A stretch of DNA of 64,000 nucleotides from Gemmatimonas sp. (lineage in GTDB: Bacteria > Gemmatimonadota > Gemmatimonadetes > Gemmatimonadales > Gemmatimonadaceae): positions 32,174-96,173 of the forward strand of contig NZ_JBIJCN010000002.1 of the NCBI RefSeq assembly GCF_044344655.1, written 5' to 3'. The notes under the pieces are model-generated. The model was not told the DNA's origin and ran no database searches. It saw only the letters and a program-made list of their open reading frames with translations. Of the stretch, positions 28,065 through 31,833 are shown one piece after another. Position 1 is the stretch's first letter. Each line of letters opens with the position of its first letter. Made by a program: the position numbers and the translations under genes.

Positions 28065-28256
28065 ACGACCGGGGGCGCCCGGCGACCCCCGGAATCCGGG
28101 CGCCCAAAACCGGACTGTTACTTACCCGAGTCATTATCCGGTCCCAGTGGTCAAACTGTCTCTTGACTCCGTGGCCAGAAAGCCGGAAGTTGTTCTTCCC
28201 TTGCTCGCCCGCACGTGTGCGGCCGGGCAAGGGGAGATCGCCTGCTTTACGACATA

Positions 28257-28434
28257 GACACTGGTCACCGGCTTCTGCACCCAGAGGTCGGCGCTAAGAG
28301 GGAACTCCGGTGAGAACCCGGGGCGGCCCCGCCGCTGTAAGGGATGACGAGGAAGCTTCCCGCCACTGCGCCATGTCTGGCGCGGGAAGGCCGCTTCCGA
28401 GGACGAATCCCGAGCCAGAAGACCTGCCAGTGTC
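28257..28434 (+). ncRNA. Cobalamin (AdoCbl-type, full-length) riboswitch
   Basis: P1 GACACTGG/CCAGTGTC; AAGAGGGAA-CCGGTGAGAACCCGG-GCGGCCCCGCCGCTGTAA; GCCACTG...GGGAAGG; B12 box GAGCCAGAAGACCTGCC. Confidence 0.95.
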
Positions 28435-28643
28435 CGAGTCCGCGCGCCCCCTCGAGGGAGGGTTCGCCGGGGATTGCTGCGCCGCACCGTTTTCATGAGA
28501 TGCGCGCGGCCCCGTCTGGGCTCCCTGCGTTGTCTGCCGGGGGCCTTCGTGCTGCTCACGATCACGTGGGGGGCACGAGCGACGGGTGAACGTCCTCGGG
28601 TGGGTGTGCACACGCAGCTTTTATCCCCCTCTGGAGACACCGA

Positions 28644-31070
28644 ATGACCACGTCCGTCGTCCCGCGCGCCGAGGTTCGCCCGCAGTTTGGGAGCTACGAC
28701 TCGACCGGAGTGCGCACCATCACCGAAGTTATCAAGCGCGACGGCCGTCGAGCCTCCTGGGACCCGGAGCGCATCACGCGCGCCATCGCCCTGGCCTTCT
28801 GGGCTGCGCGCCACGACGACGCGATCAACCCGCACGCCAGCGACGCCGGGCACCGCTTCGGCCTCGGGTTCACCGAGTTCGCCGACGTCTGCGAAATCAC
28901 GCAGCTCGTGGTCAACACCGTGGAGCGCAAAGCGCAGGAGCGCACGCCCACCGTCGAGGAAATCCAGGACGTCGTCGAAATGATGATCGCCGCGCGCGGT
29001 CATTGGGACGTGGCCAAGCGCTACGTGATCTATCGCGCCCAGCGCGCCCAGGTCCGGCTCCACGCCCACGAAGAAGACGGCCTGCAGGACTACATCTTCC
29101 TGTCGCGCTACTCGCGCTACCGGGAAGACCTCGGCCGCCGCGAAACGCCGTCGGAGGCGTTCACGCGCGTGATGGACATGCACCGCGCTCACTTCGCCGA
29201 CAAGCTTGACCTCCCGGTCGCCGGCTTCGGCGGGCGTACGCTGCGCGCGCTGATGGACGAGACCGAGCAGGCGCTGCAGCGCAAGGCGATCCTCCCGTCC
29301 ATGCGCTCGCTCCAGTTCGGCGGCCAGGCCATCGAGGCCAACAACGCCCGCATGTTCAACTGCGCCTTCACGCACATCAACCGCGTGGACGCGTTCAAGG
29401 AGGCGTTCTTCCTCCTTATGTCGGGCACGGGCGTGGGCTTCTCGGTACAGAAGCATCACGTGGCGCAGCTGCCGGCCTTCCCGGTGCGCGGCGCCGAAAA
29501 CGATCTCGAGGTCATCCACTACACAGTGGGAGACACGCTTGAGGGCTGGGCGGACGCACTCGGCGCGCTCATCCAGAGCTATCTCGACAACAAGAAGATC
29601 GAGTTCAACTACTCGGGCATCCGCCGTCGCGGCGCCCCCCTCCGCACCTCGGGCGGCCGCGCCCCCGGGCACATCCCGCTCAAGAAGGCGCTGAGCGCCG
29701 TCGAGCGCATGCTCGAGCAGGTATCGGGTCGTTCGCTCCGCCCGATCGAGGTGTACGACATCCTCATGCACGTCGCCGTCGCCGTGCTCTCGGGCGGCAT
29801 CCGTCGCTCGGCCACGATCTGCCTCTTCTCGGCGGACGACGACGAAATGGCGGCCGCGAAGACCGGCAACTGGTTCGAAACCAACCCGCAGCGCGGCAAG
29901 TCCAACAACTCCGCCGTGCTCGTGCGCGACAAGCACACCGAAGGCGACTTCCAGAAGCTCTTCGAGCTGCAGAAGGAATTCGGCGAGCCGGGCTTCTACT
30001 TCGTGGACGATGTGGAGTACGGCGCCAACCCGTGCGTGGAGATCGGCCTCGCGCCGTTCGCCGTGGTGGACGACGCGGCGCAGGCCAAGCTCGCCGAATA
30101 CGGCATGCCCGGCGTAGACGTGGGCAGCACCGTGAGTGGCTGGCAGATGTGCAACCTCACCACGATCAACGCCAACGCCTGCGACGACGAGGCCGGGTTC
30201 CTCGCCTGCTGCCGCGCGGCGTCGCTGCTCGGAACGCTGCAGGCGGCGTACACGACCATCCCCTACCTCGGTGCCGCCACGCGGTACATCAACGAGCGTG
30301 AGTCGCTGCTAGGCGTGAGCATCTGCGGTATCCTCGATCGCCCGTCGCTCCTGCTCAACCCGCAGGTGCTGGAGCGCGGTGCGCAGGAGTGCCTCGACAC
30401 CAACGCGGCGGTCGCCAGCCATCTCGGTATCCCGGCCGCGGCGCGCATCACCTGCGTGAAGCCCGAAGGCACCGCCAGCCTCGTGCTGGGCGCGGGCTCG
30501 GGGATCCACCCGCACCACGCGCGCCACTACTTCCGTCGCGTGCAAGCTGCGCGCACGGAGCCGGTGTACCAGTGGTTCAAGATGAACAACCCGCACATGA
30601 CCGAAGCGTCGGCGTGGGATCCCGATACGACCGACGTGATCACCTTCCCGGTGACGGCGCCGGCCGATGCGATCCTCCGCAAGGACGTGGGCGCGGTGCA
30701 GTTCCTCGAGTACGTGCGCCTCGTGCAGCAGCACTGGGTGGTCGCCGGCCGTCGTCACGAGACGTACAACCCCGGCCTGCACCACAACGTGTCCAACACG
30801 GTCACCGTGCGCGACGAGGAGTGGGACGCCGTGCAGCAGTTCATCTTCGAGAACCGCGGCTACTTCACCGGCATTTCGCTGCTCCGCGAAACAGGCGACA
30901 AGGTCTACGCCCAGGCGCCGCGTGAAGAGGTGACCACCGAAACCGACATGGCCAAGTGGAACGCCCTCGTGTACCGCACGGTCGACTACACGGCGCTGTG
31001 GGAAGGCACCGATATGACCACGCTCGCCGATACCGTGGCGTGCGCCGGTGGTGCCTGCGAGATCATCTGA
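28644..31070 (+). CDS. nrdJ: Class II ribonucleotide reductase, monomeric NrdJm/RTPR type, with N-terminal ATP cone
   Basis: ATP cone VIKRDGR; ILPSMRSLQFGG; FNCA; finger loop ANPCVEI; CNLTTIN; TCVKPEGT; VYAQAPREE; C-terminal CAGGAC; no class I YY pair; no nrdB or nrdG adjacent. Confidence 0.85.
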   Translation: MTTSVVPRAEVRPQFGSYDSTGVRTITEVIKRDGRRASWDPERITRAIALAFWAARHDDAINPHASDAGHRFGLGFTEFADVCEITQLVVNTVERKAQERTPTVEEIQDVVEMMIAARGHWDVAKRYVIYRAQRAQVRLHAHEEDGLQDYIFLSRYSRYREDLGRRETPSEAFTRVMDMHRAHFADKLDLPVAGFGGRTLRALMDETEQALQRKAILPSMRSLQFGGQAIEANNARMFNCAFTHINRVDAFKEAFFLLMSGTGVGFSVQKHHVAQLPAFPVRGAENDLEVIHYTVGDTLEGWADALGALIQSYLDNKKIEFNYSGIRRRGAPLRTSGGRAPGHIPLKKALSAVERMLEQVSGRSLRPIEVYDILMHVAVAVLSGGIRRSATICLFSADDDEMAAAKTGNWFETNPQRGKSNNSAVLVRDKHTEGDFQKLFELQKEFGEPGFYFVDDVEYGANPCVEIGLAPFAVVDDAAQAKLAEYGMPGVDVGSTVSGWQMCNLTTINANACDDEAGFLACCRAASLLGTLQAAYTTIPYLGAATRYINERESLLGVSICGILDRPSLLLNPQVLERGAQECLDTNAAVASHLGIPAAARITCVKPEGTASLVLGAGSGIHPHHARHYFRRVQAARTEPVYQWFKMNNPHMTEASAWDPDTTDVITFPVTAPADAILRKDVGAVQFLEYVRLVQQHWVVAGRRHETYNPGLHHNVSNTVTVRDEEWDAVQQFIFENRGYFTGISLLRETGDKVYAQAPREEVTTETDMAKWNALVYRTVDYTALWEGTDMTTLADTVACAGGACEII

Positions 31071-31088: not shown

Positions 31089-31130
31089 ACGCAAAAGGGG
31101 AGCGACCGACCGGTCGCTCCCCTTTTGCGT
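31089..31130. terminator. Bidirectional Rho-independent terminator (perfect 20-bp stem)
   Basis: ACGCAAAAGGGGAGCGACCG / CGGTCGCTCCCCTTTTGCGT between convergent genes. Confidence 0.9.
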
Positions 31131-31140
31131 GGGCACGTCG

Positions 31141-31638
31141 TCAATGCTTCATGCCCGTGTTGCACCCTTCCTCGAGTACCTCGAAGGCATCGTGCAGCCC
31201 CTTCATCGCCGCCTTGAGCGCCGCGTCATCGGCCTTGGCCGCCACCATCGCCTGCACCTTCTCCGTCCCTGCGGTGAGCCCCGCCTGCGCCTTGGCCAGT
31301 TCGGGCTTCTGACAGGCCGTGGGCGCCGTGGAGGCCGCCACGGCCTTCGCGGCAGTCACCATCTCGCCGATCTTTGCGCGCGTGGGCGCCAGGTCACCCT
31401 TGTCCTTGGCAGGGTGCCACGTGGCCATCATCAGCATGTGGTAGGCGTCGAGCTCCTTCCAGGCCGCAGGCTTGGCAGCGCCCATCTGCTTCATATGCTC
31501 GGCGTGCATGGCGGCGTGGTCCATGCCGGCATGCCCCTTGTCGGCGGTACCGGCTTTGGGCGGGGTCTGCTGGGCAGCGGCGACCGAGGCGGAAAGGCTC
31601 AGCGCCGAGGCCAGCGCGAAGGAAAGGCGAAAGCGCAT
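31141..31638 (-). CDS. Secreted His/Met-rich helical protein of unknown function
   Basis: Signal peptide; GHAGMDHAAMHAEHMKQM; WKELDAYHMLMMATWHP; LHDAFE; two Cys. Confidence 0.75.
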   Translation of the reverse strand: MRFRLSFALASALSLSASVAAAQQTPPKAGTADKGHAGMDHAAMHAEHMKQMGAAKPAAWKELDAYHMLMMATWHPAKDKGDLAPTRAKIGEMVTAAKAVAASTAPTACQKPELAKAQAGLTAGTEKVQAMVAAKADDAALKAAMKGLHDAFEVLEEGCNTGMKH

Positions 31639-31833
31639 GGGATGGTGTGGTAAGGAATGTGAGACGAGGGGGAGCAAGGCTCCCGTGGATCTTACCCAAC
31701 GCGGGCCGCGCCCGCATCGTAGTCCTTCTGGTACCCCCGTGCTCCCGCTAGGTCCCGGAACCCTGTTCCGGAAGCCGCCTCAGGGAGGTCCGGTAGCCAC
31801 CCGGCTGACCCTGCACTCTCCACCCGTCCCCAG

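Follow-up and report, generated by a model that had tools for sequence, protein, structure and literature searches.

The stretch of DNA analysed here, referred to as the window, is 64,000 nt in length and is from a Gemmatimonas metagenome-assembled genome (MAG) of 3.2 Mb in 93 contigs (assembly GCF_044344655.1, contig NZ_JBIJCN010000002.1, positions 32,174–96,173). It contains a cobalamin riboswitch upstream of a gene for a class II ribonucleotide reductase (RNR), an enzyme that is presumably B12-dependent. The gene is located at positions 28644–31070 on the plus strand, and the close homologs of its product are from Gemmatimonas. The pairing of riboswitch and RNR gene is monophyletic and is found in at least 31 species-level genomes.

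Riboswitch and expression platform

Rfam covariance models were run over the whole window at gathering thresholds, and the sole match above threshold is the cobalamin riboswitch, RF00174, at positions 28245–28445 (+). The match has a score of 120.0 bits (gathering score 31.5) and an E value of 1.6e-29, and it extends over the complete model (1–189 of 189). This bears out the riboswitch proposed in the preliminary description, which was made from the sequence alone; the element starts 12 nt upstream of the position 28257 given there. Across eight orthologous aptamers, 11 of 50 predicted base pairs have changed in a compensatory manner, and the core columns (GGGAA and GCCACUG) are invariant. The aptamer is genuine and is of the long form; its ligand is predicted to be of the adenosylcobalamin (AdoCbl) type. 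The features of the leader are as follows, where SD denotes Shine-Dalgarno.

28245–28445 (+), cobalamin riboswitch aptamer, long form with P6 peripheral extension (RF00174, 120 bits; covariation)
28323–28335 (+), P5 hairpin with loop L5 (CCCCG), the predicted kissing-loop donor; L5 is invariant in all orthologs
28413–28428 (+), B12 box AGCCAGAAGACCTGCC (leader alignment)
28449–28462 (+), motif 1, the P13 hairpin CCCUC-GAGG-GAGGG (CCCUCGAGGGAGGG), directly 3' of the aptamer and the predicted switching element (clade leaders, folding)
28466–28474 (+), GCCGGGGAU, near-invariant in the clade, in which CGGGG is a perfect complement of L5 CCCCG; candidate alternative kissing or antiterminator strand (leader alignment)
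28476–28510 (+), variable hairpin H1, with a stem that covaries between lineages
28518–28557 (+), intrinsic terminator, consisting of hairpin 28518–28545 (GGGCUCCCUGC...GCCGGGGGCC) and a degenerate U-tail at 28546–28557 (-15.8 kcal/mol)
28548–28577 (+), variable hairpin H2 (folding)
28592–28609 (+), motif 2, GUCCUCGGGUGGGUGUGC, candidate anti-SD, complementary to motif 1 (duplex energies)
28625–28638 (+), SD region CCCCCUCUGGAGAC, with the SD GGAGAC at 28633–28638, a mimic of motif 1 (lineage-wise resemblance)

The expression platform is located between the aptamer and the open reading frame (ORF) and is 198 nt in length (28446–28643), not 209 nt as first described. Its anatomy is based on an alignment of approximately 40 distinct orthologous leaders, and this alignment rules out a platform that has no terminator. 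The preliminary description reported no obvious U-tailed terminator, but hairpin 28518–28545 matches a terminator that is conserved in 31 of the 40 distinct leaders scored, i.e., a contiguous CUCCUU-type stem of 8–14 bp with a U-rich tail and compensatory changes in the stem. In the orthologs the terminator has the form GGGCUCCUUGC-loop-GCAAGGAGCC followed by UUUU(U), and the hairpins have energies of about -12 to -24 kcal/mol. The stem in the window and its closest relatives has one mismatch, and the U-tail is degenerate (UUCGUGCUG). The leader of a Gemmatimonadota MAG (locus L008, positions 1842–2003, JBDKIJ010000302.1) has a short platform where P13, motif 2 and the SD are kept and the terminator hairpin is absent. 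This layout suggests that the translational module alone can suffice.

Motif 1 is near-invariant among the leaders of the clade, with a single variant (L016). By itself it folds weakly into the P13 hairpin (-7.9 kcal/mol). It is also complementary to motif 2, which has the consensus GUCCUCGGG(G/U)GGGUGUGC across the leaders. The duplex between motifs 1 and 2 has an energy of -27.3 kcal/mol in the window (21-nt segments) and a mean of -26.2 kcal/mol over 35 leaders, compared with -12.3 +/- 3.7 for shuffled motif 2. Within this duplex, lineages differ in having CACCC:GGGUG or CCCCC:GGGGG. The purine run of motif 1 has a further possible partner in the 5' arm of the terminator, with a duplex energy of -11.2 kcal/mol in the window and mostly about -8 kcal/mol in the orthologs (-5 to -8). 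This arm varies by C/U changes only, which keep the pairing with the invariant purines of motif 1. Motif 2 can pair in turn with the SD region (-14.1 kcal/mol in the window), and in roughly two thirds of the leaders the SD lies within the site where motif 2 pairs best. The SD region resembles motif 1 lineage by lineage: CCCCCUCUGGAG is similar to CCCCCUCGAGGGAG in the window, and CACCCGAAGGAGG to CACCCUCGAGGGAGG in L010. On this lineage-specific mimicry alone, the motif 2:SD pairing is a plausible element of the platform.

P13 was compared with its counterparts in a survey of all cobalamin riboswitches in 31 genera of Gemmatimonadaceae. Nearly every genus surveyed has a cobalamin riboswitch, usually upstream of genes for BtuF-like proteins or TonB receptors. 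In 26 further riboswitches of the family, a hairpin of the form CCCUC-loop-GAGGG is present 3' of the aptamer. Its loop is GGGG (15 cases), GCGG (one) or of the GAGG type (five) in all 21 riboswitches with CCCC as L5, and it starts with GGA in all five with UCCC as L5. Motif 1 is identified as P13 because the same hairpin follows the aptamer in the family and its loop covaries with L5. In the RNR type of riboswitch both L5 and the P13 loop are invariant; the GAGG loop is an imperfect match to L5, and a perfect CGGGG is located 5 nt downstream.

Two styles of P13 are observed in riboswitches of the Gemmatimonadaceae (loci L095, L108, L109 and L111 among them). Type A has a GGGG loop within an outer GCGCCAC...GUGGCG stem, and type B is a CCCCUC-GAGG-GAGGGG hairpin followed by GCGGGG. 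The RNR riboswitch is of type B, and the true partner of L5 may therefore be the downstream G-run. Two other pairing schemes were considered and rejected. The loop of the L4 region (GUGAGAAC) has no consistent complement across orthologs that would make it the kissing partner of the platform, and a larger P13 with CGGGG in its loop (GGGCACGC/GCGUGCCC in L010) is not conserved across lineages.

The ribonucleotide reductase and its probable cofactor

The coding region has two features. RTPR denotes adenosylcobalamin-dependent ribonucleoside-triphosphate reductase.

28644–31070 (+), nrdJm-type class II RNR gene, 808 amino acids, ATP-cone and RTPR-like core (profiles, fold)
28725–29048 (+), ATP-cone domain, residues 28–135 (PF03477, 64 bits)

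The class II monomeric hallmarks noted previously are all present in the protein. The motifs are PSMR at residues 218–221, C240, NPCVE at 462–466 (the finger loop), C503, QAPRE at 757 and CAGGAC at 800–805, and there is no YY. The finger-loop Cys (NPCVE), the active-site Cys pair (C240 and C503) and the C-terminal redox Cys pair (CAGGAC) are invariant across 49 homologs. The P-S-M-R motif of the apical phosphate loop varies little or not at all within the family and fits the pattern of enzymes that reduce ribonucleoside triphosphates (NTP type), P-[ASG]-[GM]-R, a function to which the motif has been assigned (PMC8365446). Pfam analysis gives a score of 28.5 bits for the class II insertion domain PF21995 (cut-off 27) and a weak match to the RNR barrel. 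PF21995 is an insertion in loop 1 that imitates the interface of a dimer. Among NCBIfam models the highest-ranking is TIGR02505 (RTPR), with 244.5 bits, which falls short of its equivalog cut-off of 340.05.

The structural comparison is similar. The best sequence match in the PDB is 1L1L, the RTPR of L. leichmannii (E value 5.5e-28), with the C-terminal Cys pair aligned. An AlphaFold model of the protein has a predicted local distance difference test score (pLDDT) of 87.2 and a predicted template modelling score (pTM) of 0.82, and its top structural match is again 1L1L, far ahead of the next (Foldseek E value 3.5e-30, template modelling score 0.71). The protein appears to be an RTPR-like NrdJm of a distinct subfamily, with an ATP-cone and PSMR, and no RTPR equivalog.

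A class I alpha subunit with an unlinked beta subunit was considered and is rejected: the models of class I and class III RNRs match the ATP-cone only, there is no YY, the protein groups with RTPR and NrdJm, and the beta subunit family PF00268 is not found in the MAG. NrdD (PF13597) is not found in the genome either, and there is no partner gene at the locus, in agreement with the previous observation that neither a beta subunit nor an activase is encoded here. An operon partner that generates the radical is likewise rejected; the neighbouring genes encode an S9 peptidase, an M14 carboxypeptidase and, on the opposite strand, a small ORF product that has no Pfam match.

The B12 dependence inferred for the enzyme from its relatives is well supported. 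The P-S-M-R motif is present in 2.1% of NrdJs, and a natural enzyme with this motif has been found by experiment to be B12-dependent and NTP-specific (PMC8365446, Schell et al. 2021). That paper's main text contradicts itself as to which organism has which motif; the sequence labelled Parvibaculum in its supplement contains IMPSMRAMM (PMC8365446). The Parvibaculum NrdJ aligns with residues 154–808 of the window RNR, which is the whole core, with 33% identity and an E value of 7e-101. As a test against B12 dependence, the riboswitch clade was examined for invariant residues that had become relaxed or altered, and none were found: of 261 columns that are near-invariant in the homologs that have no riboswitch, 246 are unchanged in the clade, and there are five fixed differences, which are conservative. 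In 11 of 23 distant genomes checked, a homolog of this protein is the sole detectable RNR, with no other PF02867 protein and no NrdD. A cobalamin riboswitch exceeds the gathering score in ten of these 11 genomes, and in the eleventh there is a match below that threshold, so that none of the 11 is devoid of any B12 riboswitch match. These genomes thus sense, and presumably use, B12.

Three additional features delimit the transcription unit.

28163–28191 (+), promoter-like site, with a -35 sequence TTGACT (28163–28168), a 17-nt spacer and a -10-like sequence GAAGTT (28186–28191) (ortholog conservation)
28198–28234 (+), 5' leader hairpin with loop CACGUGUG, probably at the very start of the mRNA (-27.6 kcal/mol)
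31090–31129 (unstranded), gene-end terminator, a perfect 18-bp hairpin between A and T runs (-37.3 kcal/mol)

A sequence of the form TTGAC(A/T)-N17-(GAAGTT/CATACT/GATGTT) is kept at an equal distance 5' of the aptamer in approximately 20 orthologous loci, which points to a promoter role for positions 28163–28191. The orthologs also have a hairpin between this site and the aptamer, with a covarying stem and a loop of the CACGUGUG/UUCGUG type; it may serve as a 5'-end stabiliser or a protein site. The gene-end terminator is probably bidirectional and is the one that had been recognised previously. The RNR gene is monocistronic and has a promoter-like site and a terminator of its own. An ORF for 178 amino acids at 31141–31677 (-) is convergent with it. 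The product has no Pfam match, a signal-like N-terminus and a His/Met-rich stretch (HMLMMATWHP, HAEHMKQM), and may be a periplasmic metal-binding protein.

Phyletic distribution and genome context

Homologs of the RNR were analysed at 80 of 354 relative-encoding loci in species-representative genomes. By Rfam, the riboswitch is 5' of the RNR gene at all seven of the clade loci tested (protein identity of 74% or more). A B12-box scan places it at 39 of 41 clade loci, where the exceptions are a truncated locus (L039) and a decayed one (L017). It is absent from all 32 of the more distant homolog loci scanned (13 + 19), and it is thereby ruled out as a general trait of this RNR family. In the protein tree the genes that have a riboswitch form one clade with a support of 100 (31 rows and L017), and a single gain and a single loss of the riboswitch account for the pattern. 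Sister lineages that lack it are other Gemmatimonadaceae, Chloracidobacterium/Blastocatellia and Opitutales. The survey of co-occurrence suggested in the preliminary description thus reveals a pairing that is clade-wide and confined to one clade. The cultured species G. phototrophica also carries the riboswitch-RNR element (locus L013).

The decayed copy is in a Gemmatimonadales MAG (L017, positions 1750–2003, JBBSCJ010000015.1). Only the P4–P5 part of the aptamer is left, and the B12 box, P13, H1 and the terminator are lost; motif 2 and the SD mimic are retained, and the protein is on a longer branch (0.11). With an off switch this copy would be translationally locked off, or drifting.

A second RNR is encoded in 19 of 21 genomes that have the riboswitch, versus three of ten Gemmatimonadota genomes that do not (Fisher p = 0.0013, uncorrected for phylogeny). 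Such a pattern is expected if the enzyme controlled by the riboswitch can be shut off, and it is an independent hint of off polarity. In a Verrucomicrobiae MAG (G042, the L076 genome), the gene for the second RNR large subunit (C1:1602858–1604481) appears only as seven overlapping fragments with in-frame TGA codons; a pseudogene, frameshift errors and recoding are candidate explanations.

The window MAG has one further RNR large subunit, a canonical dimeric NrdJ (NrdJd) that scores 1143 bits with PRK08665. It has the PNSP motif of enzymes that reduce ribonucleoside diphosphates (NDP type) and a C-terminal zinc finger. No riboswitch is present in the 4.4-kb locus around its gene. The listing of other RNRs, another check proposed at the outset, therefore gives a canonical NrdJ and no RNR of class I or class III in the MAG.

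Only two cobalamin riboswitches are found in the MAG. The second is at C33:45415–45593 (-) (locus L083, 74 bits) and precedes a Btu-type uptake operon with Peripla_BP_2, FecCD, ABC ATPase and TonB-plug genes. It carries the same P13 element, ACCCUCGAGGG. The first gene of this operon has a probable TTG start, well 3' of the first in-frame start, that gives a lipoprotein signal (MVRRVRWCLLPWFGSALVAC). Neither MetE nor CbiC, which marks the de novo synthesis of corrins, was found in the MAG. Three proteins with B12-binding domains are present, one of them a MetH-like frame of 1283 amino acids. Gemmatimonadota in culture require media with B12, and MAGs of the phylum have btuB/tonB and no de novo pathway (PMC10581226). 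Gene content indicates that this bacterium is a B12 auxotroph and is committed to B12 for DNA precursors and methionine, since neither CbiC, MetE nor a B12-independent RNR was found and the literature on Gemmatimonadota agrees.

Polarity of control and relation to known systems

The reading we favour, and consider probable, is that of an AdoCbl-type off switch on a monocistronic gene for a second class II RNR, a monomeric, B12-dependent, NTP-reducing and ATP-cone-regulated enzyme that would be an isozyme for B12 scarcity. The off polarity, taken by itself, is likely. It is predicted because ligand-stabilised kissing would lock P13 and lead to termination and SD sequestration, and it is expected because this design principle is common to the Btu-uptake riboswitches of the family. 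Off logic is the rule for riboswitches that precede genes for BtuF-like proteins and TonB receptors.

With AdoCbl bound, L5 (CCCCG) would kiss the G-rich P13 region and lock the CCCUC-GAGG-GAGGG hairpin. The terminator at 28518–28545 could then form, motif 2 (28592–28609) would be free to pair with the SD region in transcripts that read through, and the RNR would not be made. With AdoCbl scarce, P13 would open, and its purine run would pair with the 5' arm of the terminator (CUCCCU) as an antiterminator. The whole of motif 1 would form a long-range helix of approximately 15 bp with motif 2, the SD would be freed and the RNR would be made. Low B12 would in this manner derepress two units together, the Btu uptake operon and NrdJm. 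NrdJm could be an extra apo-RNR that captures cofactor and competes for scarce AdoCbl, or a more B12-efficient isozyme of the NTP type. With plentiful B12, the unregulated NDP-type NrdJd would carry the load.

Several observations weigh against this proposal. Minimum free energy (MFE) folds always contain the terminator, and the antiterminator argument is consequently a kinetic one. When the RNA is folded up to the 5' arm of the terminator, the pairing of motif 1 with this arm is the MFE structure in eight of 21 leaders, and in most of the remaining leaders GCCGGGGA pairs with the arm instead. The U-tail is weak in the window genome. The motif 2:SD pairing is no stronger than in controls (-19.4 kcal/mol versus -17.3 for shuffled and -19.7 for swapped sequences). 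The GAGG loop and the downstream CGGGG are both candidates for the partner of L5. As to the enzyme, the nearest relative that has been assayed, the Parvibaculum NrdJ, shares just 33% identity with it, and the RTPR equivalog cut-off is missed. The MAG is approximately 90% complete, and the physiological reasons suggested above for B12 to repress a B12-requiring RNR are conjectural.

Four explanations were offered in the preliminary description. Among these, an off switch at high AdoCbl is favoured here, and an on switch and an AdoCbl-independent enzyme are less likely. If binding of AdoCbl activated the gene, the B12-requiring RNR would be made only in the presence of its cofactor; L5 could, for example, seize the CGGGGG in motif 2, or the terminator could be made less favourable in some other manner. 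This is the most intuitive logic for a B12-dependent enzyme, and there are sequences that would serve it: motif 2 has a G-run complementary to L5, and the 3' arm of the window terminator (GCCGGGGGCC) also contains CGGGG. The weakness of the antiterminator evidence at the MFE level also favours it. The 3' arm in most orthologs, however, is GCAAGGAGCC, which has no complement to L5, and the terminator does not overlap the aptamer, unlike in known on designs. Moreover, the P13 kissing hairpin is the same as in the Btu-uptake riboswitches, and locking it removes both the antiterminator and the anti-anti-SD strands. The near confinement of the riboswitch to genomes with a second RNR argues in the same direction, since an on switch on a sole B12-dependent RNR needs no such limit. 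To our knowledge, all cis-acting cobalamin riboswitches characterised to date are off switches. An on switch is thus considered unlikely.

It is also conceivable that NrdJm does not need the corrinoid sensed by the riboswitch, i.e., that it is B12-independent or uses another cobamide such as pseudocobalamin, and that the usual isozyme logic applies. This would fit the four established categories of the cobalamin regulon, namely biosynthesis, transport of B12, transport of cobalt, and isozymes that substitute for B12-dependent enzymes (PMC3766115). The score below the RTPR equivalog cut-off and the identities of 22–33% to tested enzymes leave room for a different cofactor, but the enzyme has the full class II fold and catalytic set, and no partner that generates the radical is found in the genome or at the locus. 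The relative with PSMR is B12-dependent by experiment, and of 261 family-invariant positions 246 are the same in the riboswitch clade, where the changes are conservative only; the cobalamin riboswitches above the gathering score in 10 of 11 sole-RNR genomes are a further argument against this alternative, which we regard as improbable. An equally low probability is given to its specific form, in which NrdJm would use another lake corrinoid (cyanobacterial pseudocobalamin or incomplete corrinoids) or be a class II-derived RNR with no need for AdoCbl, and the NrdJd/NrdJm pair would switch DNA synthesis by cobamide type or cofactor type.

The leader in the window genome could otherwise be a decaying or constitutive attenuator, a relic with no meaningful control by B12. 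The weak U-tract in the window and its closest relatives (UUCGUGCUG) and the losses in L017 (most of the aptamer) and L008 (the terminator) are in line with decay. Nevertheless, the aptamer retains every core motif and a score of 120 bits, and conservation in this lineage extends to P13, GCCGGGGAU, motif 2 and the SD mimic, with lineage-specific covariation (CCCCC with a G-rich motif 2). Translational control needs no U-tail, and the arrangement is conserved across more than 30 species. A relic is very improbable.

The NrdJm product, as a class II and presumably B12-dependent enzyme, is outside all four of the regulon categories listed above. The preliminary description had placed this regulation outside the usual logic whereby B12 represses B12-independent isozymes, and it stands in this respect, since both the riboswitch and the class II RNR are upheld. 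No published description of a riboswitch 5' of nrdJ emerged from full-text searches of the literature. The parts are known ones, i.e., the RF00174 aptamer, a P13/terminator platform and NrdJm, and it is the wiring that is new. Cobalamin riboswitches are usually taught and annotated as controlling B12 synthesis, uptake of B12 or cobalt, and B12-independent substitutes, whereas the gene here encodes an enzyme that uses the cofactor. If the off polarity is true, B12 starvation would induce a B12-dependent isozyme together with uptake, a response to cofactor scarcity of a kind that has not been described for RNRs.

The presence of two NrdJs in one genome is of interest in that 1108 organisms have more than one NrdJ, 69% of them with an NDP-type and an NTP-type enzyme, and the selective advantage "remains elusive" (PMC8365446). 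Isozymes deployed at different cofactor levels may be an answer, and it is a testable one. Cultured Gemmatimonas species (G. phototrophica, L013) make the system open to experiment, and it has a bearing on the ecology of B12 limitation in lakes and soils.

Comparison with known enzymes shows that the Parvibaculum NrdJ, which is B12-dependent and NTP-specific by experiment, shares the monomeric RTPR-like core, the P-S-M-R apical loop and the C-terminal CxxxxC. It has no N-terminal ATP-cone and no reported riboswitch, and at 33% identity it represents a separate subfamily. The RTPR of L. leichmannii (1L1L) resembles the window RNR in its insertion domain, which imitates a dimer interface, in its finger loop NPCxE and in its C-terminal Cys pair, which aligns with CAGGAC. 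The identity in the structural alignment is only 22%, however, and the window RNR differs in having an ATP-cone that replaces or extends the N-terminus and in having PSMR in place of PSGR/PAGR.

The riboswitches of btuB (E. coli), env8 and the uptake operon of the same MAG (L083), which are grouped here as Btu-type elements controlled through an L5–L13 kissing loop, belong to the same aptamer family, have the aptamer-proximal P13 ACCCUCGAGGG, and have purine-rich P13 strands that pair with pyrimidine-rich partners in the terminator or SD. The RNR riboswitch is different in that it controls an enzyme that uses the cofactor and no gene for uptake or biosynthesis, and in that its platform is long (198 nt) and apparently combines a terminator with a three-part SD/anti-SD/anti-anti-SD module. 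In Streptomyces coelicolor, nrdABS is reportedly under a B12 riboswitch, as is said to have been described by Borovok et al. in 2006. The two systems are alike in that an AdoCbl riboswitch on one of two RNRs sets which is made, the other RNR being a canonical NrdJ that has no riboswitch. What is repressed in S. coelicolor is NrdAB, a class Ia enzyme that does not depend on B12, in keeping with textbook logic. In the Gemmatimonas MAG, in contrast, no B12-independent RNR is found and the RNR that would be repressed is itself presumably B12-dependent.

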